Shown here: one piece after another, positions 14,360-32,000 of the stretch
How positions within the stretch are numbered: position 1 is the stretch's first letter
How the letters are laid out: every line of letters starts with the position of its first letter
Origin: Pseudoalteromonas tetraodonis
GTDB taxonomy: Bacteria; Pseudomonadota; Gammaproteobacteria; Enterobacterales; Alteromonadaceae
Length of the DNA stretch: 32,000 nucleotides
Direction: 5' to 3'
Assembly (NCBI RefSeq): GCF_002310835.1
Contig: NZ_CP011042.1
Span: 60,001 to 92,000, forward strand
Position numbers and translations under genes: made by a program
The notes under the pieces: model-generated
Seen by the model: the letters and a program-made list of their open reading frames with translations, nothing else
What the model was told of the DNA's origin: nothing
Databases searched by the model: none

Positions 14360-16537
14360 TTAGTGCTGTGCTTTATATTTCAAGCGGTAGCTGTGTAGTA
14401 GCGGCTCTGTGTAACCGCTCGGTTGGCTAACCCCTTCAAATACCAGTGCTAAAGCAGCTTGATACGCAATACTTTTAGCTAATGTCTGCTCATTAGTTGC
14501 CATTGGCGTGTAAAGGCTGTCATGCTCGTTTTGGCCATCAACAACCTTAGCCATTTTTGCCATCACTTTTTGTACTTGCTCTTTGCTACATACACCATGA
14601 TGTAGCCAGTTGGCGATATGTTGGCTTGAAATACGTAAGGTGGCTCTGTCTTCCATTAAACCAATATGATTAATGTCAGGCACTTTAGAGCAGCCTATTC
14701 CTTGGTCAATCCAACGTACTACGTAGCCTAAAATACCTTGCGCGTTGTTTTCAAGCTCGCTTTGAATATCTTCTTTTGATAGCGTTTCAGGGTTTGGCAT
14801 GAGCGGCGGTGTAAGTAAGCTCTCTAGGCTTGCTATTTGACGCGTGGCAATGCTTTGCTGCAGGCTAAATACATCAACATCATGATAATGCATTGCGTGT
14901 AATGTGGCGGCAGTAGGGGAGGGCACCCAAGCGGTATTTGCGCCAGATTGAGGGTGCGCTATTTTTTGCTCCATCATCATCGCCATTTTATCTGGCATTG
15001 CCCACATACCTTTACCAATTTGCGCTTTATGGCTTAAGCCACAGGCTAGGCCAATATCAACGTTGCGATCTTCGTAAGCGCTGATCCAAGGCTGTGCTTT
15101 AATAGCCGCTTTCGGCAGCACAACACCCGCTTGCATTGAGGTATGAATTTCATCGCCAGTGCGGTCTAAAAAGCCAGTGTTAATAAACACAACACGCTCT
15201 TTTGCTGCATGAATACATGCTTTTAAGTTGGCTGATGTTCGACGTTCTTCATCCATAATACCCATTTTAAGGGTGTTTTTAGGCAAGCTCAGTGCCTCTT
15301 CAACCATACCAAATAAAGTATTAGCAAAGGCGACTTCATCAGGGCCATGCATTTTCGGTTTTACAATATTAATACTTTGCGCGGTTGAATTTTTAATCGT
15401 GTTTTTAGTGTTTAAATCGTGCAAAGCAGCTGTTGCGGTGAACATGGCATCCATAATGCCTTCAAACACATCATTGCCGCTTACATCGGTAATGGCTGGA
15501 TTTGTCATTAAATGTCCCACGTTACGCACAAACATCATACTGCGCCCTTTGAGGGTCAGTTTTTGGCCATCAAGACCTGTATATTGTCGGTCAGCTTGTA
15601 ACGTGCGGTCGACCATTTTGTCGCCTTTTCTAAACGTTTCAACCAAGTTGCCTTGCATTAAACCAAGCCAGTTTTTGTAAACTTGTGCTTTATCTTCTGC
15701 ATCCACTGCGGCAACCGAGTCTTCACAGTCCATAATGGTTGTTAGTGCGGCTTCTAGCACCACATCTTTTAACCCTGCTTTATCAGCTTGACCAATAGGG
15801 TGGTGATGGTCTATTTGCAGCTCAATATGCAATCCATTGTTTTTAAGTAAAATAACACTCGGGTTTTGTGCTTCACCCTGATAGCCAATCAGTTGCTCAG
15901 GGTTTTTAAGTGTGGTGTGCGAACTGTCGCGCAGGGTAATAGCAAGGGCGCCGTCAACAATAGAATAGTTAGTACTTTCAATATGCGAGCCATTTTCAAG
16001 CGGTAATGCTTTGTCTAAAAACTGCCTTGCGTAAGCCATTACTTTAAAGCCACGAACAGGGTTGTATTGGCTGCCTTTTTCGGCGCCGTCGTCTTCGCTT
16101 AATACATCGGTTCCATATAAAGCATCGTACAACGACCCCCAACGTGCATTAGCTGCATTAAGTGCAAAGCGTGCATTACTAACCGGCACCACTAGCTGTG
16201 GCCCTGCAGTCAGCGCTATTTCTGGCTCTACATTTTGAGTTTCAATACTAAAGTTTTCAGGCTCATCAACTAGGTAGCCAATATCTTTTAAAAACGCTTG
16301 ATACTGAGCTTGGTCAGCATTTTTATTTGCAAGGTGGTAGTCATCAATTTGCTTTTGTAGCTGTTCACGCTTAGCCAGTAGTGATTTGTTCAATGGTGTA
16401 AGTGTTTGCACTATGTTGGCAAAGCTTTTCCAAAACTGGTGTTCATCAAGATGGGTACCAGGTAATAATTGTTTTTTAACAAATTCAGCAAGTTGCTTAT
16501 CAACGCTGAGTCCTGAATGGGTGAGAGTGTGGCTCAT
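14360..16537 (-). CDS. glcB: malate synthase G
   Basis: About 725 aa, with length and sequence typical of the G isoform (for example '[14 protein letters not shown]' and '[10 protein letters not shown]'). I chose the ATG at 16537 ('[12 protein letters not shown]...') because an AAGGA RBS lies 8 nt upstream. The ORF-track start at 16603 adds 22 unlikely residues. Confidence 0.95.
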
Positions 16538-16776
16538 AATTAATATCCTTAAACGGTCCGACAGTGTGCAATTTTTTATATGCGTACACCTACCATATCG
16601 CAAAAAAGTGGCTTTGAATGCTTTTTAGTCATTCACTATATGTATAGCCGTAATAAAAACTATAAATTTACTAAATCTAAAAAATAAGCCTAATGTTTAA
16701 TTAAGCGCTACAGAGCTAACGTGATGTAGTCACTCTCTCAACAATAAATATTAATACCCGTTCGAAGGACTTTATT

Positions 16777-18378
16777 ATGACAACATATCAAGGCGAAACA
16801 GATACACTAGCAACATTATGCCAATCACAAGGCAGTGCATGGAAAACAATTAATCCTGAATACGCAACACGTATGCGTTTACAAAATCGTTTTCGCTCTG
16901 GTGTTGATATTGCACAATTTACAGCAGACATCATGCGTGAAGACATGGCTGCATACGATAAAGACACAAGCCAGTACACACAGTCTTTAGGTTGTTGGCA
17001 TGGTTTTACTGCCCAACAAATGATGATGGCAATTAAGCGCCATCAAAAAACAACTAAGCGCAGTTACGTATACCTAAGCGGTTGGATGGTTGCAGCGCTT
17101 CGCTCTGAGTTTGGTCCTCTTCCAGATCAAAGTATGCATGAAAAAACATCAGTACCGGCACTTATCGAAGAAATCTATACCTTCTTAAAGCAAGCGGATG
17201 CACGTGAACTTGACCACTTATTTAATGAACTAGACGACGCAAAAGCAAACGGCGGCGACGTTCAAGCAGTACTTAACAAAATTGATAACTTTGAAACGCA
17301 CGTTGTACCAATTATTGCTGACATTGATGCCGGTTTTGGTAACGAAGAAGCAACTTACCTACTAGCTAAAAAGATGATTGAAGCGGGTGCATGTGCTATC
17401 CAAATCGAAAACCAAGTATCAGATGCTAAGCAATGTGGTCACCAAGCAGGTAAAGTGACGGTTCCACATGAAGACTTTTTAGCAAAAATTAATGCAGTGC
17501 GTTACGCGTTCCTAGAGCTAGGTATTGATAACGGTATTATCGTTGCGCGTACCGATTCACTAGGTGCAAGCCTTACGCAAAAAGTACCGGTTTCAAAAAA
17601 ACCAGGTGACTTAGCAAGCCAATACAATGCATTTTTAGAAACAACCCCAGTAAACAGTGTTGATGACTTAAATGAAGGCGAAACAGCAATGAAGCTTAAT
17701 GGTCAGCTTTGTAAGCCAACACGCCTAGACAATGGTTTATACCAGTTCCGCGAAGGCACTGAAAAAGACCGTGTAGTACTAGATTGTGTAACGAGCCTAC
17801 AGTCAGGTGCGGATTTACTGTGGATTGAAACAGAAAAACCACATGTAAAACAAATTGCTGAACTCGTTAATCGCGTAAAAGAGCAAGTACCAGATGCTAA
17901 ATTAGTATACAACAACTCACCATCGTTCAACTGGACGCTGAAGTTCCGTGAGCAAGTATACCAAGAATGGCAGGAAGAAGGTCGTGACCTGAGCGCTTAC
18001 CCAAGTCTTGATGATAACAAAGCGCTTATGGCTCCAGAAATGGATGCAACAGAGCTTGCAGCAGCTGCTGACTTATTAGTACAAAACTTCCAACGCGATG
18101 GTGCACGTGAAGCGGGTATTTTCCACCACCTAATCACGTTACCAACGTACCACACAGCAGCATTAAGCACAGATATTCTATCTGAAGGTTACTTTGGTGA
18201 CTTAGGTATGCTGGCTTATGTACGTGATGTACAGCGTCAAGAAATCCGTCGTGAGCAAGCGTCTGTTAAACACCAAGACCTTGCAGGCTCAAACATTGGT
18301 GATACACACAAAGAGTACTTCTCAGGTGAGAATGCACTTAAAGCCGGTGGTGAAGCTAACACCATGAACCAATTTTAA
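16777..18378 (+). CDS. aceA: isocitrate lyase (long, roughly 530-aa type)
   Basis: 533 aa. The catalytic-loop signature 'KQCGHQAGK' is a variant of KKCGH. 'DIDAGFG' and 'IENQ' are also present. The size matches the long ICLs of Pseudomonas and Colwellia. It is divergent from glcB. Confidence 0.95.
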   Translation: MTTYQGETDTLATLCQSQGSAWKTINPEYATRMRLQNRFRSGVDIAQFTADIMREDMAAYDKDTSQYTQSLGCWHGFTAQQMMMAIKRHQKTTKRSYVYLSGWMVAALRSEFGPLPDQSMHEKTSVPALIEEIYTFLKQADARELDHLFNELDDAKANGGDVQAVLNKIDNFETHVVPIIADIDAGFGNEEATYLLAKKMIEAGACAIQIENQVSDAKQCGHQAGKVTVPHEDFLAKINAVRYAFLELGIDNGIIVARTDSLGASLTQKVPVSKKPGDLASQYNAFLETTPVNSVDDLNEGETAMKLNGQLCKPTRLDNGLYQFREGTEKDRVVLDCVTSLQSGADLLWIETEKPHVKQIAELVNRVKEQVPDAKLVYNNSPSFNWTLKFREQVYQEWQEEGRDLSAYPSLDDNKALMAPEMDATELAAAADLLVQNFQRDGAREAGIFHHLITLPTYHTAALSTDILSEGYFGDLGMLAYVRDVQRQEIRREQASVKHQDLAGSNIGDTHKEYFSGENALKAGGEANTMNQF

Positions 18379-24091: not shown

Positions 24092-25660
24092 TTGCGTTTT
24101 CGATCACCATTTACTTTTAAACTTAGGCAATTAATTCTGTTGTTAGCTATCACTGCTACAGCCGCTATTTTGTTCAGTGGTTTATACATTAGTTACCAAG
24201 TACAAAAAGAACGGGTAATAGAAGATACTCTCAAAAGTAACCATGTATTTGCTAGTAAGCTTGCCTCGGCGACCGATCACTTTTTAGCAGCTGCGATGCA
24301 GCAACTTGAGTTTTCAGCCAAAATTATTGCTAAAGACATTACCAATACTGAGTTACTCCAAGCTGAAACCAACCGCCTTTTAAACCAAACACATAGCTTT
24401 AATTCGGTAGCAATTAACATGCAAGGTGTCGTTAAAGCGGCCTCACCTGTTTCATTAAATATTATTAATAAAACCGTTAATTCACCTCATTCTAAACAAG
24501 CCTTTAAACTACAGCGTCCATTGGTTAGTCGTCCTTATGTATCGCTTGCGAATAACTTAATTGTTGTACTTTCTTATCCTTTATTTGACGAGATGGGTAA
24601 TTACTATGGCTATATTGGTGGTAGCTTTTATTTAGAACAACAGAGCATTTTAAACGCCTTATTAAAACAGCATAGTTACGATGGCGGGGCATACTTTTAT
24701 GTGGTGGCTGATAATAAAACCTTACTTTATCATCCTGAGACTGAGCGGATTGGCGAACAAGTCATTAATAACCCAGTAATAGAGCGTGTTTTGCAAAGCG
24801 AAGATGGATACACCCGGGTTTTAAATAGCCAAGGCGTGTCTATGCTTGCTGGATATTCGCCCGTTAAACTTGCTAATTGGGGCGTAGTTGCCCAGCGTAG
24901 TGAAGCGGCAACACTTGCCACGTTAGATACTTTTCAAGGGCTGGTGCTTAAGCGAATGCTACCAATTGTATTAATTACTTTTGTATTGATTGGTGTGTTA
25001 GCGCATTTTATTGCTAAGCCACTTAGGCTCCTAGCTGACAGTGCAAATTTATCGACTGATCAACAAAACGTAGCGAATCTTAAAAGTATTAAATCTTGGT
25101 ACTTTGAAAGTCAGCAACTTAAAGCAGCCATGTTAGAAGGAGTTAATATACTGCAGTCGAAAATGGGGCAATTACGCCAAGATGCACTCACCGATCCGCT
25201 AACTGGTGCGCATAATCGGCGAGGTTTGTATTTATTGTTAGATAAATTAATTCAAGAACAGATCCCCTTTGCGGTTCTAGAAATAGATATCGACTTTTTT
25301 AAACGGGTTAATGACACTTTTGGCCATGATGTGGGCGATGAGGTACTAAAAACTTTAACGTGTGTGATCAAGCAAGTATCTCGCAAAGATGATATTGTCG
25401 CGCGAACTGGTGGGGAGGAATTCTTACTTATATTACCGAACGAAAATAGCGATAGTGCGTTTGTTATTGCTGAGCGGTTACGTAATGAAGTGGCGAATAC
25501 ACCGATGGCCAAAGTTGGTTGTATAAATGTCTCCATCGGCATTGCTACATGGCCGCAGCACAGTGATGATATTGATCAAGTATACAAATGTGCTGACAAA
25601 GCGCTCTATCATGCAAAAGAAACGGGCCGTAATAAAACCGTTATTGCCAGTCTAAATTAA
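24092..25660 (+). CDS. membrane diguanylate cyclase with a periplasmic Cache-like sensor domain
   Basis: 522 aa with a TTG start and an AGGA RBS. TM1 is 'LILLLAITATAAILFSGLYI', followed by an extracytoplasmic domain of about 260 aa and TM2 'LPIVLITFVLIGVLAHFI'. The GGDEF domain has an active site 'GGEEF' and an RxxD I-site ('RKDD') five residues upstream. Confidence 0.9.
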   Translation: MRFRSPFTFKLRQLILLLAITATAAILFSGLYISYQVQKERVIEDTLKSNHVFASKLASATDHFLAAAMQQLEFSAKIIAKDITNTELLQAETNRLLNQTHSFNSVAINMQGVVKAASPVSLNIINKTVNSPHSKQAFKLQRPLVSRPYVSLANNLIVVLSYPLFDEMGNYYGYIGGSFYLEQQSILNALLKQHSYDGGAYFYVVADNKTLLYHPETERIGEQVINNPVIERVLQSEDGYTRVLNSQGVSMLAGYSPVKLANWGVVAQRSEAATLATLDTFQGLVLKRMLPIVLITFVLIGVLAHFIAKPLRLLADSANLSTDQQNVANLKSIKSWYFESQQLKAAMLEGVNILQSKMGQLRQDALTDPLTGAHNRRGLYLLLDKLIQEQIPFAVLEIDIDFFKRVNDTFGHDVGDEVLKTLTCVIKQVSRKDDIVARTGGEEFLLILPNENSDSAFVIAERLRNEVANTPMAKVGCINVSIGIATWPQHSDDIDQVYKCADKALYHAKETGRNKTVIASLN

Positions 25661-25682: not shown

Positions 25683-25699
25683 CTTAAGTTTTATTTAAG
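25683..25699 (+). promoter_or_regulatory. candidate response-regulator box CTTAAG-TTTTA-TTTAAG (matches YTTAAK-N5-YTTAAK, the PmrA/BasR-type direct repeat)
   Basis: An exact match to both half-sites with one-helical-turn phasing, 49-65 nt upstream of the operon's first ATG (25748). The adjacent response regulator (30013-30672) is BasR/PmrA/QseB-like. Confidence 0.4.
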
Positions 25700-25747: not shown

Positions 25748-26401
25748 ATGCAATTAGCTCAACAACAGTCATCATCAACACTTTTTCAGTCGTTCACACA
25801 GTTTGTGAGCGCCAGAGAATGTGATGAACACCGTCAGCGCCTTGAAGATACAGTAAAACAAGGCTTTTTAGCTGCGTACAATGCCAGCCTAACTTCATTT
25901 ATGCCATTACTCTGTCAGTATAAAACTCAGCAAGGGCATTGCACTTTAGGGCTTAGAAACGCTACTTCTCCTTTATTTATTGAACAATATTTAGCAGCGC
26001 CCATTGAGCAGTTTTTACCAATGGGCACACAGCGCAGTAAAGTGTTTGAGTTAGGTAATCTCTATTCAACACACAGAAAAGCCACGTTATCGCATTTTAT
26101 TATTGTTAATGAAGCTTTAAGAGCTATTGGTGCTACTAATTTGGTTTTTTGTGCCACCAAACATGTACGCGCTTTATTGCGTTTATTAGGGGTAACGTGT
26201 AATGAAATTGCATTGGCTAACAGCAGTGTTGTTGAGCAACCAAAAAGCTGGGGAAGTTACTACGCGAACCAGCCTACAGTATGCATTGTTAATTTAGAGC
26301 AAGCACATCTACAAGTACTTAATACGCCAATGCTACTTGATATTAAACAACAAAATACACATGGCATTACGGCATTAATCAATGCGCTGGAGACGGTATG
26401 A
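25748..26401 (+). CDS. 'thermostable hemolysin' (delta-VPH) family protein, probably an acyltransferase-fold enzyme
   Basis: 217 aa. 'LGLRNATSPLFIEQYLAAPIEQ', 'VFELGNLYS' and 'WGSYYANQP' follow the pattern I recall for the Vibrio delta-VPH / T_hemolysin family. There is no signal peptide or TM segment. Confidence 0.7.
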   Translation: MQLAQQQSSSTLFQSFTQFVSARECDEHRQRLEDTVKQGFLAAYNASLTSFMPLLCQYKTQQGHCTLGLRNATSPLFIEQYLAAPIEQFLPMGTQRSKVFELGNLYSTHRKATLSHFIIVNEALRAIGATNLVFCATKHVRALLRLLGVTCNEIALANSSVVEQPKSWGSYYANQPTVCIVNLEQAHLQVLNTPMLLDIKQQNTHGITALINALETV

Positions 26402-27876
26402 GTATGTTAAATAGCTTAAATGACTTAGCGACTCAGCCGGCGGTAGTTGCGCATTTTGCGAATCAAACACAACAGTTCACAGGTGCTGAGCTGCTTCAAG
26501 AAATAAATAAAGTAGCGGAAATTTTTGCAAATTCAGATGCTGATGCAATTGCATTTCAACTTGATAACACACCTGCTTGGTTGGTACTTGATGCTGCGAC
26601 CAGCGTTGCTAATAAAGTGGCTATACCGATCGCCCATTTTTTTAGTCAACAACAAACGCAATATGTGTTGGCACAGTGTGGTGCACAGCTGTTTATAAGT
26701 GATATGCCAAGGCTTTCTTTGGGTGCGCATACATTGTCTATTACTTTGTTTGATCATTACACCTTATATATTTATCAGCTCAACGTTAAAGAATCGATTA
26801 GTTACTTTGAGGGCACGCAAAAAATCACCTTCACGTCAGGCTCTACAGGCGAGCCAAAAGGGGTGTGTTTATCAACTCATAGCCAAATGCAAGTTGCACA
26901 ATCGTTATGTGAGCAAATAGGTATAAGTAAACCAACTCACTTATGTTTACTGCCATTACCTGTATTACTGGAAAATATTGCAGGTATTTATGCACCATTA
27001 TTAAGTGGCGGTTGTGTACATTTAATGCCGTTAAACGAATTGGGTTTTGTTGGCTCAGGGTTAAAAAATCCTGAAAAACTTATTAGTGCAATTGACAGTG
27101 TAAAACCTAACACCCTTATTTTAGTGCCTGAGTTATTAACGTGTTTAATTGCGTTTGCAAAACAAGGTTGGCAGCCGCCAAAGTCATTACAGTTTATTGC
27201 AGTTGGCGGAGCGCTCGTGAGTGATGCTTTAATTGCCACCGCCAGAGAGCTTAATTTACCTGTTTATCAGGGGTATGGATTATCAGAGGCGGCATCTGTC
27301 GTAAGTTTAAATACGCCCAAAAATGATGATTTAAAGAGTGCCGGCACTGTACTGCCGCACATACAAACCAAAATCGAAAAAGGCCAGTTGTACATAAAGG
27401 GTGAGCTATTTTTAGGGTATTTAAATCAAGCGCCGCATAACCCAAATAACTGGTATGCAACAGGCGATTTAGTGACCCAGCATGGCAATAAGCTCTATAT
27501 AAAAGGGCGACTTAAAAATCTGATTATTACCAGCATGGGCCGTAATGTCAGTGCTGAATGGCCTGAGTCATTAATATTGAGCCAAAGCGCGATTATACAA
27601 GCCGTTGTTTTTGGTGAGGGCAGACCTTTTTTAACCGCGATTATTTATGCAATCCCTGAGTTGAGTGATCAACAACTCAGTGAGCATATGAAATTTATAA
27701 ATCAACAGTTACCCGATTATGCACAAGTTAAAAAGTGGCATCGGTTAGCTCAGCCTTTAAGTGTTCAGCAAGGGTTACTAACGACCAATAATCGTCCTAA
27801 GCGCCAGGCTATTAGCCAGCAATTTAACCTTATTTTTGAACAATTTTACCGACTTGGAGAAGTGATCCATGACTGA
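26398..27876 (+). CDS. adenylate-forming enzyme (AMP-binding / acyl-CoA-ligase superfamily)
   Basis: 492 aa. Core motifs are 'TFTSGSTGEPKGV', 'QGYGLSEA', 'YATGDL' and 'GRLKNLIITSMGRNV'. The start overlaps the upstream stop (ATGA at 26398-26401). Confidence 0.9.
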   Translation: MSMLNSLNDLATQPAVVAHFANQTQQFTGAELLQEINKVAEIFANSDADAIAFQLDNTPAWLVLDAATSVANKVAIPIAHFFSQQQTQYVLAQCGAQLFISDMPRLSLGAHTLSITLFDHYTLYIYQLNVKESISYFEGTQKITFTSGSTGEPKGVCLSTHSQMQVAQSLCEQIGISKPTHLCLLPLPVLLENIAGIYAPLLSGGCVHLMPLNELGFVGSGLKNPEKLISAIDSVKPNTLILVPELLTCLIAFAKQGWQPPKSLQFIAVGGALVSDALIATARELNLPVYQGYGLSEAASVVSLNTPKNDDLKSAGTVLPHIQTKIEKGQLYIKGELFLGYLNQAPHNPNNWYATGDLVTQHGNKLYIKGRLKNLIITSMGRNVSAEWPESLILSQSAIIQAVVFGEGRPFLTAIIYAIPELSDQQLSEHMKFINQQLPDYAQVKKWHRLAQPLSVQQGLLTTNNRPKRQAISQQFNLIFEQFYRLGEVIHD

Positions 27877-28558
27877 TTTTTTTAATACATTAAAAGCACA
27901 AACTCAAAACGAGCGTGAGTACTTATTAGCTGCGCCAATTATACAGCGCGTTTTTAAAGGCCAAGCATCACTTGAAGAGTATGCGTCATTTTTAGCGCAA
28001 GCCTATCATCATGTAAAACACACTGTGCCATTAATGATGTCGTTAGGTGCCCGTTTAACCGACGAACAAGAATGGTTACGTGAAGCCGTAGCCGAATACA
28101 TTGAAGAGGAAATTGGCCATCAAGAATGGGTGCTTAACGATATTGCCGCGTGTGGTTTTGATAAAGAAAGCGTGCGCCATAGTAAGCCACAATTTGCTAC
28201 CGAAATGATGGTCTCGTATGCCTATGACAGTATCGCTCGTAAAAATCCATTAAGCTTTTTTGGCATGGTTCATGTACTCGAAGGGACTTCAATTGCACTG
28301 GCTGATGGCGCAGCTTCAAATATTGCTGATGCAGTTGGTTTACCTAAAAAAGCATTTAGCTATTTAACCTCTCATGGTGCGCTTGATATAGAGCACGTAA
28401 AGTTTTTTGAAAACTTGATGAACAAAATTACTAATGAGACCGATCAGCAAGCTATTTTACATGGCGCAAAATGTTTTTATCGTTTGTACGGTGATATTTT
28501 CCGCGCTTTAGATGACGAGCCGTTCTTTAAAGCATCAGCGCAAGAGCAACACGCATGA
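27869..28558 (+). CDS. heme-oxygenase-like diiron oxidase/oxygenase (HDO) superfamily protein ('iron-containing redox enzyme family')
   Basis: 229 aa and predicted all-helical. Candidate metal ligands are E81-x2-H84 (28109-28120), E138 (28280-28282) and H169-x3-D173-x2-H176 (28373-28396). The start lies inside the last 8 nt of the ligase gene. Confidence 0.75.
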   Translation: MTDFFNTLKAQTQNEREYLLAAPIIQRVFKGQASLEEYASFLAQAYHHVKHTVPLMMSLGARLTDEQEWLREAVAEYIEEEIGHQEWVLNDIAACGFDKESVRHSKPQFATEMMVSYAYDSIARKNPLSFFGMVHVLEGTSIALADGAASNIADAVGLPKKAFSYLTSHGALDIEHVKFFENLMNKITNETDQQAILHGAKCFYRLYGDIFRALDDEPFFKASAQEQHA

Positions 28559-29325
28559 ATACCGGCTTATGTGTTTTAACAGGAGCCACAGGGGGAATTG
28601 GCCAAGCGATTGCCAAAACACTGCACGCACAAGGTTGGCAATTACTATTAGTAGGGCGTAATGGCGATGCGCTAAATGCGCTAAGTAGCCAGTGCCCAGG
28701 TAGTATGACTTTTGTGGGAGATTTAACCGTTGCAGAAAACATGCTGGCATTGGCAATTAAAGCCAAAAAATTGGGCGGTGCTAAATTACTTATAAACAAT
28801 GCAGGCATTAATGTTATGCAAAGCTTAAGTAGTTGTAGTAGTGAACAAATTGATAATCTACTGAGCACTAATTTAGCCGTCCCGATGAAACTATGCCAAC
28901 TGTTTTTAGAGCAGCTGCAAGCGAATAGAGGCACCATAGTTAATGTTGGGTCGTCTTTTGGCAGCATAGGTTACCCATATCAAACACTTTATTGTGCCAG
29001 TAAATTTGGTTTGCGTGGTTTTAGCGAAGCGTTATCACGAGAGCTTTCAGACACTGGCGTTAGAGTTACTTATTTGGCACCTAGAGCAACTGATACCGAC
29101 ATTAATGATGCTCAAACGCGGGCAATGAACAAAGCGCTTGGTAATCAAATGGACTCTCCGCAGTTGGTGGCTGATGAGTTAGTTGCGTTATTAAACTCAA
29201 ATAAAACCAGACGATTTATTGGTTTTCCTGAGAAACTTTTTGCACGTATCAATGGCGTTTTTCCACGTATTGTAGATAACGCAATTGCTAAACAACTCCC
29301 TAAAATAAAAAGCTTTTTAGGTTAG
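28555..29325 (+). CDS. short-chain dehydrogenase/reductase (classical SDR)
   Basis: 256 aa. Cofactor motif 'TGATGGIGQAI', 'NNAG', and catalytic 'S..YCASK' (YxxxK). There is an ATGA overlap with the upstream gene. Confidence 0.9.
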   Translation: MNTGLCVLTGATGGIGQAIAKTLHAQGWQLLLVGRNGDALNALSSQCPGSMTFVGDLTVAENMLALAIKAKKLGGAKLLINNAGINVMQSLSSCSSEQIDNLLSTNLAVPMKLCQLFLEQLQANRGTIVNVGSSFGSIGYPYQTLYCASKFGLRGFSEALSRELSDTGVRVTYLAPRATDTDINDAQTRAMNKALGNQMDSPQLVADELVALLNSNKTRRFIGFPEKLFARINGVFPRIVDNAIAKQLPKIKSFLG

Positions 29326-29353
29326 TTGTTCACTAAATAATAGAGGATTTATT

Positions 29354-30001
29354 ATGAAAAAATTTACTTTAGCAGCTTATTTAAGCATTGTTAGTGTGTT
29401 TTCATCGCCGGTATTTGCAGACGAACAAAGCGACTTACTCGCTATTCAACAGCAGTGGGCGGTCGCTAATTATGAGCTTAAGGATGACGCACAAATCAAA
29501 GCCTTTACTCAACTGAGTGAGCAAAGTGCTCAATTTATCGAAAACTATCCTAATTCAGCAAATAGCTATACATGGAACGGCATTGTGCTGGCAAGTTTTG
29601 CGGGTGCAAAAGGCGGCTTAGGGGCGTTGGGTTATGCCAAAGATGCAAAGGCATCATTAGAGCAAGCCCTTAAAATAGACGACAGTGCTTTAGGTGGCTC
29701 AGCGTATGCTAGCCTTGCAACCTTATACAGTAAAGTACCAGGGTGGCCAATTGGCTTTGGTGATGATGACACCGCCGATAAGTTTTTTAAGCAAGCACTC
29801 GCTTTTAATCAAAAAGGCATTGATACTAATTACTTGTATGGTGAGTTTTTATACGACGAACGTGAATATAAGCAAGCCAAAGCCCATTTGTTAGTTGCAC
29901 AAGCGGCCGGTATTCGTGATACTCGCGCTAAAGCGGACAAATATCGTCAGCAAGCAATTAGCCAATTATTAGCTAAAGTTGATAAAAAACTAAAGAGATA
30001 A
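29354..30001 (+). CDS. secreted/periplasmic helical-repeat (TPR-like) protein
   Basis: 215 aa. Signal peptide 'MKKFTLAAYLSIVSVFSSPVFA'. The remainder is Ala/Leu/Lys-rich with TPR-like 'A..Y..AL..D' periodicity. An AGAGGA RBS lies 6 nt upstream. The family assignment is tentative. Confidence 0.6.
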   Translation: MKKFTLAAYLSIVSVFSSPVFADEQSDLLAIQQQWAVANYELKDDAQIKAFTQLSEQSAQFIENYPNSANSYTWNGIVLASFAGAKGGLGALGYAKDAKASLEQALKIDDSALGGSAYASLATLYSKVPGWPIGFGDDDTADKFFKQALAFNQKGIDTNYLYGEFLYDEREYKQAKAHLLVAQAAGIRDTRAKADKYRQQAISQLLAKVDKKLKR

Positions 30002-30012
30002 CAAAACAAACA

Positions 30013-30672
30013 ATGCATTTATTATTAGTTGAAGATGATCATCTTGTGGCGCAAGGGCTTTGCCGCTCGTTGCGCCAAGAAGGCTACAGTGTAGAACACA
30101 GCGCAACGGTTAAGCATGCGTTGCAATGTTTAGGCAGTGGCGAAATAGAGTTGGTTATACTTGACCTAGGCTTACCTGATGGTGATGGTTCGCAAATTTT
30201 AAAGCACATAAAAGCACAAAAAAAAGTCATTCCGGTGGTGATACTAACCGCTCGCAGTAGCATAGATGACAAAGTGCAAGGGCTTGATATGGGGGCTGAT
30301 GATTATTTAGCTAAGCCATTTGAACCAGCCGAATTATTTGCTCGTTTGCGCGTAGCGAGCCGACGTGTAAATCAAGCTCAGTCGAGTTTATTACAATGTG
30401 GTGATGTTACTATGGATACGTCAGCGCACAGTGTCACACTTAACGATGAGCTACTTTCTCTGCCGCGAAAAGAGTACATGCTGCTAAAAGCGTTACTGGA
30501 AAACCAAGGTCGCGTGCAATCTAAGCAGCAGTTAGAAAATAAACTCTATCAATGGGGTGAAGAGGTTGGCTCTAACACCATTGAGGTGCATATTCATCAC
30601 CTACGAAAAAAATTCCCCAGCGATTTTATTAAAACTCTCCGTGGTATTGGCTATGTTGTGGGAAAGAGATAG
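30013..30672 (+). CDS. OmpR/PhoB-class response regulator, BasR/PmrA/QseB-like
   Basis: 219 aa. 'LLVEDD', 'LVILDLGLPDGDG' (phospho-acceptor Asp), 'ILTAR', 'GADDYLAKPF', and a winged-helix C-domain 'TIEVHIHHLRKK...TLRGIGYVV' that closely parallels E. coli BasR. It starts 11 nt after the preceding stop. Confidence 0.9.
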   Translation: MHLLLVEDDHLVAQGLCRSLRQEGYSVEHSATVKHALQCLGSGEIELVILDLGLPDGDGSQILKHIKAQKKVIPVVILTARSSIDDKVQGLDMGADDYLAKPFEPAELFARLRVASRRVNQAQSSLLQCGDVTMDTSAHSVTLNDELLSLPRKEYMLLKALLENQGRVQSKQQLENKLYQWGEEVGSNTIEVHIHHLRKKFPSDFIKTLRGIGYVVGKR

Positions 30673-30735: not shown

Positions 30736-32000
30736 ATGTCAATTCGTAAGCGTTTAACACTTATCTTACTGTCAATGATGGTGTTAACCTGCTTTTTAGC
30801 TTTAGTAAAAGGCTATCAAAAAAGTATGAGCCATGGTGAGCAATTACTCGATAGTGAGCTAAAAGTGGTGGCTGGAGTCTTGATGCAACAGCCTCTATCT
30901 ATTAACGCTATGGCGCCAAAAATGCAAGAAAGCGCCCAGTTACTGTATCAAATTTGGCAAAGTGGTGAGCTACTTAGCGGTTCTGACGAATTAAATCTTG
31001 ATTTGAGCCAATATCAAGCGGGTTTTCAAACGCTTAATATTGCAGGGCAGCGAATGCGGGTATTCGTTTTTGCTACTTCTTTACGCACTGTTATTGTTGC
31101 CGAGCCGATTGCTAAGCGGTTTGAGCTTGCCGAGGCGGTGATTTTATCAGCCATGTTACCCATGTTATGGGCGGTTCCTTTGCTTGCGCTATTTATTAGC
31201 TTTTTTGTTAAATATGCACTGGCACCGTTAACCCGTTTATCAAAACAGTTAGCCCTGCGCCAAGCAAATGATTTCACAGCGATCAATTGGCAGGTGACGG
31301 ATGAAGAAATAAAACCAGTGATCAGCCGCTTAAACGACTTATTTAAACGCGTAGAAACGGCCTATTTACGAGAACGTTTTTTTGCCTCAGATGCCGCCCA
31401 TGAATTACGTACTCCCCTGAGCAGTTTAAAAATTAATGTGCATAATTTGGCCGCCCAACAAGGCGATAACCAAGAATTACAAGCCATGACTCAAGGTATT
31501 AATCGACTCACCAATATAGTGGAGCAAATGCTAATACTAGGGCGTACTCAGCCAGAGCAGTGGCAAAAGCAGTTTAAAGAACAGTCATTATTAGCGATCA
31601 CGCAAGAAGTAGTTAGCCAACTATATGAAAAAATAGAGGCTAAAAATCACACTATTAGCCTTGAGGGAGATGACTTTACTATTAACGGTGATGAGTTTAC
31701 CTTAGTGACGTTGATTTCAAACCTACTGAGTAATGCTATAAAGTACGCGCCTGCAAACGGACAAATAAAAATTACCCTAAAGCAGATGCACAGGCAGCGT
31801 ATTTGGCAAATAGAAGACAGCGGTCCAGGTATGACTGACGATCAAAAACAACGGATATTTAACCGTTTTTATCGCGTTGGCGGTGACCAACATCCTTCGG
31901 GTGAACAAGGTGCGGGCTTAGGCATGGCAATAGTCCAGCACATTATTGCTATTTATAGCGCTGAAATTAATTTAACAGACAGCGATTTGGGCGGCTTAAA
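30736..32000 (+). CDS. sensor histidine kinase (PmrB/QseC-like), 3'-truncated by the window end
   Basis: I translated this frame by hand; it is absent from the ORF track because no stop is reached. TM1 is 'LTLILLSMMVLTCFLALV', followed by a periplasmic domain of about 115 aa and TM2 'AVILSAMLPMLWAVPLLALFISFF'. H-box 'SDAAHELRTPL', N-box 'LISNLLSNAIKY', G-boxes 'EDSGPGM' and 'GAGLGMAIV'. Confidence 0.85.
   Translation, partial: MSIRKRLTLILLSMMVLTCFLALVKGYQKSMSHGEQLLDSELKVVAGVLMQQPLSINAMAPKMQESAQLLYQIWQSGELLSGSDELNLDLSQYQAGFQTLNIAGQRMRVFVFATSLRTVIVAEPIAKRFELAEAVILSAMLPMLWAVPLLALFISFFVKYALAPLTRLSKQLALRQANDFTAINWQVTDEEIKPVISRLNDLFKRVETAYLRERFFASDAAHELRTPLSSLKINVHNLAAQQGDNQELQAMTQGINRLTNIVEQMLILGRTQPEQWQKQFKEQSLLAITQEVVSQLYEKIEAKNHTISLEGDDFTINGDEFTLVTLISNLLSNAIKYAPANGQIKITLKQMHRQRIWQIEDSGPGMTDDQKQRIFNRFYRVGGDQHPSGEQGAGLGMAIVQHIIAIYSAEINLTDSDLGGL

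Follow-up and report, generated by a model that had tools for sequence, protein, structure and literature searches.

A conserved T_hemolysin-family gene module of Pseudoalteromonas tetraodonis with a PmrA-type operator and a putative role in acyl-amide biosynthesis

Here, we analyzed a five-gene cluster in a 32,000-nucleotide (nt) stretch of the Pseudoalteromonas tetraodonis genome (contig NZ_CP011042.1, positions 60,001 to 92,000; the whole stretch is referred to as the window). The genes encode, in order, a T_hemolysin-family protein (Thl), an adenylating ligase of the ANL superfamily (Lig), a heme-oxygenase-like diiron oxidase/oxygenase (HDO), a classical short-chain dehydrogenase/reductase (SDR) and a secreted, all-helical TPR-like protein (P5). 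Our preferred reading, to which we assign an even chance, is that a PmrA/QseB-like two-component system controls the making of an oxidatively tailored N-acyl amide that is handled by a periplasmic lipid-binding protein, the whole forming a metal- and envelope-response module. The joint proposition that the operon has ten genes, of which these five form the biosynthetic half, and that it is controlled by its own two-component system through a PmrA-type box, we regard as equally evenly poised.

Gene order and extent of the operon

Consecutive genes of the cluster are translationally coupled, as claimed in a preliminary description of this DNA: both the open reading frame (ORF) listing and direct reading of the sequence place ATGA overlaps at 26398-26401 and 28555-28558 and an 8-nt overlap at 27869-27876. 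The 28-nt gap described ahead of the fifth gene contains AGAGGA at 29342-29347, and the response regulator starts at position 30013, 11 nt past P5, also as described. Profile searches returned the expected families (PF12261, AMP-binding, PF14518 and adh_short) for the first four proteins and no Pfam match for P5. The five-gene boundary drawn originally was, however, too narrow, as the regulator, its kinase and three metal-transport-like genes share the transcription unit (Table 1).

The downstream extension was read from Pseudoalteromonas strain MQS005 (locus L068; L numbers denote the loci collected here), whose proteins are 98-100% identical to those of the window and with which the upstream synteny is likewise shared. 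The kinase of this strain has 433 amino acids (aa), and behind it come three genes with overlapping starts, for a Cupredoxin_1 protein, a membrane protein of 246 aa and a protein of 237 aa. Orthologues of the membrane protein from Methylophaga and a Xanthomonadales metagenome-assembled genome (MAG) match Pfam FTR1, the Pseudoalteromonas match is weak, the Alteromonas macleodii orthologue is named FTR1-family iron permease by NCBI, and that of Rheinheimera gives only a weak match to EfeU. The secreted protein of ~237 aa ends in ..EYEF, could not be placed in a family and has the look of a small barrel of the outer membrane. Together with the module and the two-component system, the cupredoxin/FTR1/237-aa trio is present in 32-33 of the 61 clustered loci; it is missing from the Vibrio, Salinivibrio, Aeromonas, Pseudomonas and Marinomonas loci, where the five genes are retained. 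The regulator and kinase directly follow P5 in most lineages, with the start of the regulator overlapping the end of P5 in Methylophaga and Salinivibrio. The best NCBIfam models for the regulator are PmrA (232.8 bits, cut-off 330) and QseB (207.5 bits, cut-off 345), and the sensor domain of the kinase was assigned as 2CSK_N.

Conservation across genera

A genome scan with one genome per species yielded 49 loci, and further loci came from annotated records of plasmids and chromids and from contig look-ups; because the peptide PLFIEQYL was required, the scan covers one part of the Thl family, which comprises 1,163 representative clusters in all. The order Thl-Lig-HDO-SDR-P5 was found in essentially every complete locus, across ~20 genera of Gamma- and Betaproteobacteria, with representatives in Pseudoalteromonas, Marinomonas, Rheinheimera, Colwellia, Cognaticolwellia, Thalassotalea, Alteromonas, Porticoccaceae, Lysobacterales, Xanthomonadales, Pseudomonas, Methylophaga, Vibrio, Salinivibrio, Aeromonas, Pantoea and Variovorax, and the module spans at least 12 orders. 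The five genes are thus syntenic in other genomes, including the Vibrio, Pseudomonas and Pseudoalteromonas genomes in which a neighborhood survey had been proposed, and since the order recurs in the complete loci of other genera their grouping is not due to chance. Across orders, sequence identity is highest for HDO (48-68%) and lowest for Thl (26-38%). Genes for VIT-family (iron/manganese transporter) and cytochrome b561-type proteins recur beside the module in Variovorax, Pantoea, Paracoccus and Salinivibrio (L057, L061, L064 and L070).

A PmrA-type operator upstream of Thl

The 87-nt region upstream of Thl contains, at 25683-25699, the sole exact match to YTTAAK-N5-YTTAAK in the window, where 0.48 matches are expected. 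Nearly all Gammaproteobacterial loci have the same direct repeat at 30-150 nt ahead of Thl, and related half-sites are CATAAG in Marinomonas, CTTAAT/GTTAAT in Variovorax and a Burkholderiales MAG, and CGTAAG in Methylosinus. Within the 1.15 Mb of loci, 41 of the 66 exact matches lie within 200 nt ahead of Thl, although these 41 are not independent events, as many of the loci are closely related. In an unbiased count of 6-mers over 24 genus-level upstream regions, CTTAAG was the most enriched (19/24 regions, against 1.07 expected). The experimentally verified PmrA box of Salmonella consists of CTTAAG and XTTAAT separated by a 5-bp spacer (PMC3973317), and the window operator conforms to this published pattern (CTTAAG-N5-xTTAAT type). 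Taken together, the conservation of the box at an almost constant distance from the start codon, its enrichment and its match to the published box suggest that a PmrA/QseB-type regulator acts directly on the operon; the simplest candidate, to judge from the sequence, is its own PmrA/QseB-like system.

Some other gene blocks near the module carry the same element. On plasmid pBGP9 of Alteromonas macleodii, genes for GT2, VTT/DedA-like and GT39 (ArnT-like) proteins (L065:3493-6797) lie between the two-component/FTR1 block and the Thl operon and have their own exact PmrA-type box. In Cognaticolwellia beringensis and Colwellia polaris (L002:12274-15229 and L037), a thioredoxin-DUF4266-DUF3570-ApbE block is inserted between P5 and the regulator and is preceded, in both Colwelliaceae, by an exact PmrA-type box. 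In Paracoccus (L064:357-3965), genes for GT39, GT2 and an epimerase adjoin the module. The link to the envelope and to a PmrAB-like system that had been suggested from the window is strengthened by the conserved box, by the TatT/BstC-like fold of P5 (see below) and by the boxed Arn-like GT2/GT39 genes of A. macleodii.

The half-site and spacing, CTTAAG-N5-YTTAAK, are those of the PmrAB-controlled envelope operons of Salmonella and Klebsiella (pbgP(arn)), but the enzymes encoded here have no relation to those of the Arn, EptA or spermidine pathways and the regulator scores below the PmrA cut-off. An organizational likeness may be drawn to PA4773-PA4775-pmrAB of Pseudomonas aeruginosa, in which small-molecule synthesis genes are co-transcribed with pmrAB; here, too, biosynthetic genes are co-transcribed with a regulator and a kinase. 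A lead from Vibrio cholerae, in which chromatin immunoprecipitation sequencing of CarR had pointed to a 'hemolysin' promoter, was dropped, as that gene is VC0489 and the T_hemolysin gene dth is VCA1111.

Thl resembles acyl-amide-forming enzymes in its predicted fold

Thl matches PF12261 with 128.8 bits (cut-off 27; E = 2.6e-37). No signal peptide could be read at its N-terminus, and the predicted fold is enzyme-like. The AlphaFold2 (AF2) model (pLDDT 89) was compared with the PDB using Foldseek: the top matches are the acyl-homoserine-lactone (AHL) synthases TofI, MesI, LasI, RpaI and BjaI (E 1e-5 to 3e-4), and the N-acyl-amino-acid synthase FeeM matches with E 1e-4 to 1e-3 and TM scores of 0.52-0.56. 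Generic GNAT proteins rank below both, and the siderophore-pathway acyltransferase NcdE is among the weaker matches. The comparison of the first protein with acyltransferase folds, suggested in the preliminary description, thus places it in a GNAT-related fold nearest to AHL synthases and FeeM. Ten residues are invariant in 25 orthologues (G68, F77, E79, Y81, R96, E101, W168, G169, Y171 and Y172). E101 falls in a strand of the model and may correspond to the catalytic glutamate on strand beta-4 of FeeM-type enzymes. Pfam Autoind_synth is not matched by Thl. On the strength of the modeled fold, Thl is probably an acyl-coenzyme A (CoA)-dependent N-acyltransferase rather than a toxin.

Ligase, oxygenase, dehydrogenase and the secreted protein

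Lig matches PF00501 (AMP-binding, 2e-39) and PF23562 (AMP-binding_C_3, 5e-7), and the motifs TSGSTGEPKG, GYGLSE and TGDL are readable. Among NCBIfam models it comes nearest to menE, with a score of 152.8 bits against a cut-off of 330.15, so that it is not assigned to MenE; its nearest solved structures are MenE ligases (~1e-16). By its sequence, Lig is probably an acyl-CoA synthetase.

HDO matches PF14518 (Haem_oxygenas_2) with 111.6 bits (cut-off 28.9; 4.9e-32). Invariant in 25 orthologues are H48, E80/E81-x2-H84, E138 and H169-x3-D173-x2-H176, which, from the known pattern of HDO enzymes (three histidines and three carboxylates, with HxxxDxxH spacing typical), we take to be the diiron ligands. 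The PF14518 match and the 3-His/3-carboxylate pattern are shared with CADD/4-aminobenzoate synthase, UndA, BesC, AetD and MboA, but these characterized enzymes are distant: the sole close solved relative is 3dde (2.4e-20), whose function is unknown, followed by 1rcw and 8va9 (CADD/4-aminobenzoate synthase, ~0.002) and MboA (0.06). With 35.8 bits against a cut-off of 200 for TIGR04305, HDO falls outside the CADD-type 4-aminobenzoate synthases. The SDR matches adh_short (4.7e-43) and exceeds the cut-off for NCBIfam NF006565 (PRK09072; 309.7 bits, cut-off 238), a family with no assigned reaction; TGxxxGIG and YxxxK are both readable.

P5 has a Sec-type N-terminus that reads MKKFTLAAYLSIVSVFSSPVFA/DE and does not read as a lipoprotein. 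Its AF2 model (pLDDT 90.7) is all-helical, with nine helices, and the Foldseek matches are the TPAT T-component 8g52 (TM 0.69; 8g53 was also matched), the sterol binder BstC (7t1s, 0.66) and TatT (3u64, 0.60). More than 6,000 clusters of relatives were found at E <= 1e-5, and W35, W74, P129, W131, P132, F135 and G136 are invariant. TatT, BstC and TPAT T-components share fold and secretion with P5 and bind hydrophobic ligands, and the model suggests that P5 is probably a periplasmic binder of a hydrophobic ligand. These proteins differ in having a TRAP or RND transport partner: no TRAP (TatP/TatQ-M) or Bst transporter partner stands beside P5 in any of the loci.

Variant loci define a core pair

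Departures from the standard order show which parts of the module can be exchanged. Pseudoalteromonas denitrificans has Thl-Lig-P5 with the two-component system and metal genes and without HDO or SDR. In Acinetobacter haemolyticus, Streptomyces sp. NBC_00708 and Paracoccus sp. AK26 (L058, L060 and L064), a TauD/TfdA dioxygenase takes the place of HDO after Thl-Lig, and the Streptomyces pair lies inside a ketosynthase-rich, polyketide-type cluster with exporters of the major facilitator superfamily. On plasmid pLA3 of Novosphingobium pentaromativorans, the ligase and HDO are fused into one 678-aa protein (L063:7522-9555; Haem_oxygenas_2 at residues 496-661), and the P5 counterpart passes the Pfam TAtT threshold. 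These variants suggest that Thl and Lig are the core pair, that iron-dependent oxygenation is optional but recurrent and can be supplied by non-homologous enzymes, and that ligase and oxygenase share an intermediate or work on successive ones. No carrier protein was found in any variant locus; of the small ORFs considered for this role, the 70-aa ORF of A. haemolyticus is a ligase fragment and the 95-aa ORF of Paracoccus has no match. The TauD-type replacements were also tried and rejected as a clue to the substrate, having no close characterized relative and matching amine and amino-acid hydroxylases weakly.

Stand-alone copies of Thl were found on one plasmid each of Photobacterium damselae and Rhizobium. 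The Photobacterium copy (L056:6908-7501) lies on the mobilizable plasmid p1, near gamma-mobile-trio and recombinase genes, and keeps an exact upstream CTTAAG-N5-CTTAAG box. Such copies would fit a literal reading of the family name, which derives from cloned hemolytic activity: Thl would then be a secreted, membrane-damaging protein of the delta-VPH type, and its neighbors would be unrelated to it or would modify or activate the toxin. Purified recombinant delta-VFH of Vibrio fluvialis is reported to be secreted, to be cytotoxic by itself and to bind phosphatidylserine and phosphatidic acid (PMC11033176). Moreover, a 2018 paper on a plasmid of P. carrageenovora grouped QseBC, an iron transporter, acyl-CoA synthetases and a thermostable hemolysin as a "potential virulence cluster" and reported the cluster as conserved in 24 Pseudoalteromonas genomes, with no pathway assigned (PMC6262041). 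Yet Thl has no signal peptide, its predicted fold is like that of GNAT proteins and AHL synthases and not like that of a pore-former, and its conserved residues cluster like an active site; furthermore, across at least 12 orders of free-living bacteria from marine, soil and plant sources, the end of the gene runs into the start codon of an adenylating ligase, and in Streptomyces Thl lies within a polyketide-type cluster. We regard the toxin explanation as highly unlikely, the least probable of the alternatives considered here. The proposal in the preliminary description that the hemolysis ascribed to delta-VPH is instead an effect of a surfactant product fares both ways: there is a precedent in commendamide, a hemolytic lipid from the N-acyl-amino-acid-synthase gene choA, which was annotated as a hemolysin (PMC5643525), whereas the reported cytotoxicity of delta-VFH itself speaks against it.

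Proposed pathway and competing explanations

In the preferred acyl-amide pathway, Lig would activate a carboxylic acid, most simply to the acyl-CoA, given that none of the variants encodes a carrier protein, the alternative being that it hands over the acyl-adenylate. Thl, as a cytoplasmic GNAT-like enzyme, would transfer the acyl group to an amine to give a mono-acyl amide, a lipoamino-acid-like amphiphile, and HDO and the SDR would oxygenate and then oxidize or reduce one of the two moieties. The product would reach the periplasm, where the TatT/BstC-like P5 may bind it as a hydrophobic ligand, and the two-component system of the operon would switch on the pathway together with the cupredoxin/FTR1 system. 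As no second O-acyltransferase is conserved, a surfactant-like or signaling mono-acyl amide is likelier than a bilayer lipid, and the continuation of the operon with the regulator, the kinase, the cupredoxin, the FTR1-type permease and the ~237-aa protein suggests that the product is made within a metal- and envelope-stress response. The preliminary description had already proposed a fatty-acyl or N-acyl compound; the AHL-synthase/FeeM-like fold of Thl and its constant association with an ANL ligase bear this out in part, and the product class is something that we infer, as are the route through CoA, the amide-forming step, the choice of moiety that is oxidized, ligand binding by P5, the signal that induces the operon and its role in physiology.

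Several observations weigh against this pathway. Thl resembles its structural matches to a moderate degree (TM about 0.5), and neither its sequence nor its profile gave a significant match to PDB sequences. An hhalign comparison with LasI was not significant (probability 1.2%) and aligned the central region alone, not the N-terminal S-adenosylmethionine (SAM)-binding region, and for this reason we make no claim that AHL-synthase catalytic residues are conserved. The MenE-type affinity of Lig leaves room for an acid of another kind than a fatty acid. The regulator falls under the NCBI equivalog cut-offs for both PmrA and QseB, Marinomonas and Pantoea have no two-component system within 10 kb of the module, and there is no evident logic in inducing an FTR1-type importer alongside a response of the PmrA-like, ferric-iron-sensing kind. 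To these are added the stand-alone Thl copies and the reported activity of purified delta-VFH described above.

The same structural matches admit a cell-to-cell or self-signaling function, in which Thl, Lig, HDO and the SDR make a diffusible acyl-amide autoinducer, possibly similar to an acyl- or aryl-homoserine lactone, P5 serves as a periplasmic receptor or co-sensor for the kinase, and the regulator acts on the box to induce its own operon. AHL synthases lead the structural matches of Thl, among them the CoA-dependent RpaI, BjaI and MesI, whose substrate a CoA ligase must provide; Lig is MenE/aryl-like; synthase, binding protein, regulator and kinase would lie in one autoregulated operon; and a second O-acyltransferase for a bilayer lipid is absent. 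However, Thl has neither the Autoind_synth match nor an alignable LuxI N-terminal SAM-binding region, FeeM, which is not a signal synthase, matches it about equally well, P5 stays with the enzymes in Marinomonas and Pantoea, where the two-component system is not adjacent, and the 2CSK_N sensor domain of the kinase is generic. We consider such self-contained signaling unlikely, and less likely still its more specific form, in which the ten genes are a new autoinducing circuit whose oxidized acyl-amide signal, of a novel class, is caught by P5 and shown to the kinase, the regulator then inducing both synthesis and FTR1-type iron uptake.

Alternatively, the product could be a small metal-binding compound, made and used with the cupredoxin/FTR1 system, as HDO enzymes take part in fluopsin C synthesis. 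The FTR1 permease and cupredoxin in the same operon are consistent with a metallophore, as are the VIT-family, cytochrome b561, P-type ATPase and FecR/TonB genes that recur nearby, the PmrA-type control, and the siderophore-pathway GNAT-type acyltransferases (e.g. NcdE) among the weaker fold matches of Thl. Set against these are the absence of a nonribosomal peptide synthetase (NRPS), NRPS-independent siderophore synthetase or N-hydroxylase of known kinds and of a conserved TonB receptor or exporter, the likeness of P5 to lipid and sterol binders and not to siderophore-binding proteins, and the persistence of the five genes without the FTR1 trio in the five genera named above. A metallophore is quite improbable, more so than either form of the signaling explanation.

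Relation to known systems

Among characterized systems, the N-acyl amino acid synthases (FeeM, 2g0b, and the commendamide gene choA) are like Thl in being small cytoplasmic enzymes of GNAT-related fold, but they have no detectable sequence relationship to it and take acyl groups from the acyl carrier protein of fatty-acid synthesis, with no ligase, whereas the ANL ligase, HDO, SDR and periplasmic TPR protein are obligatory partners here. With the CoA-dependent LuxI-type AHL synthases RpaI, BjaI and MesI, the module has in common that a CoA ligase would supply a synthase that uses acyl-CoA; it differs from them in that Thl has no Autoind_synth match and no alignable N-terminal SAM-binding motifs and that a two-component system is present instead of LuxR. 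The tyrazolone/tryptazolone pathway, in which an N-acyl-amino-acid synthase works with tailoring enzymes, is an analogy and not a relative. Literature searches, which are necessarily incomplete, returned no pathway paper for this gene combination, in agreement with the earlier statement that it has no defined product; the papers returned made no mention of an HDO-ANL ligase partnership, and no study of this HDO clade was found among them. If the acyl-amide pathway proposed here is right, a GNAT-like synthase would work with an unusual set of enzymes under a conserved regulatory circuit, and the toxin name of its gene would be a mis-annotation.

The delta-VPH/dth 'thermostable hemolysin' gene is routinely counted as a virulence marker in Vibrio genomics, and this marker would need re-reading if Thl is truly an acyltransferase in a conserved, regulated pathway. 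If so, there would also be a widespread, uncharacterized metabolite to identify, be it a lipoamino acid, a signal or a metallophore, and an unstudied clade of diiron HDO enzymes would gain a genetic context, with a ligase fusion in one lineage and replacement by a TauD-type enzyme in others. The conserved operator provides an immediate handle for inducing the pathway. Were the autoinducing circuit to prove correct, the toxin annotation would have masked a system of quorum or self-sensing that reaches across at least 12 proteobacterial orders.

Features of the window

The coordinates of the operon are given in Table 1.

Table 1. Features of the operon; positions are those of the window unless a locus is given.
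Feature	Position	Strand	Length	Family or basis
Thl, T_hemolysin family	25748-26401	+	217 aa	PF12261
Lig, ANL-superfamily adenylating ligase	26398-27876	+	492 aa	AMP-binding, AMP-binding_C_3
HDO, heme-oxygenase-like diiron oxidase/oxygenase	27869-28558	+	229 aa	PF14518
SDR, classical short-chain dehydrogenase/reductase	28555-29325	+	256 aa	adh_short, NF006565
P5, secreted all-helical TPR-like protein	29354-30001	+	215 aa	Signal read by eye; model
OmpR-family response regulator, PmrA/QseB-like	30013-30672	+		Response_reg, Trans_reg_C
Sensor histidine kinase, QseC/PmrB-like	30736-32000 (gene cut by window end)	+		2CSK_N, HisKA, HATPase_c
PmrA-type operator CTTAAG-TTTTA-TTTAAG	25683-25699	+		Direct repeat; 48 nt to first ATG
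Cupredoxin, FTR1-like permease and ~237-aa protein (beyond window)	L068:16255-18060; L066:11627-13418; L067:11671-13563

A dCache_1-GGDEF diguanylate cyclase gene (24092-25660, + strand) ends 87 nt ahead of the operon and is probably outside the unit, as its position is not conserved in other genera. The absence from the window of carrier protein, thioesterase, NRPS and polyketide synthase genes, noted in the preliminary description, holds, but that of transporter genes does not: a LysE-type exporter is encoded at 504-1172, ~25 kb from the operon and unrelated to it, divergent from an Lrp/AsnC-type regulator (504-1715). The remainder of the window consists of housekeeping genes without relation to the operon, among them a divergent glyoxylate-shunt pair at 14360-18378 (malate synthase G on the - strand and isocitrate lyase on the + strand). 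An Rfam match to the cspA thermoregulator (RF01766) lies at 1855-2254 on the + strand, with 80.1 bits against a gathering score of 78.

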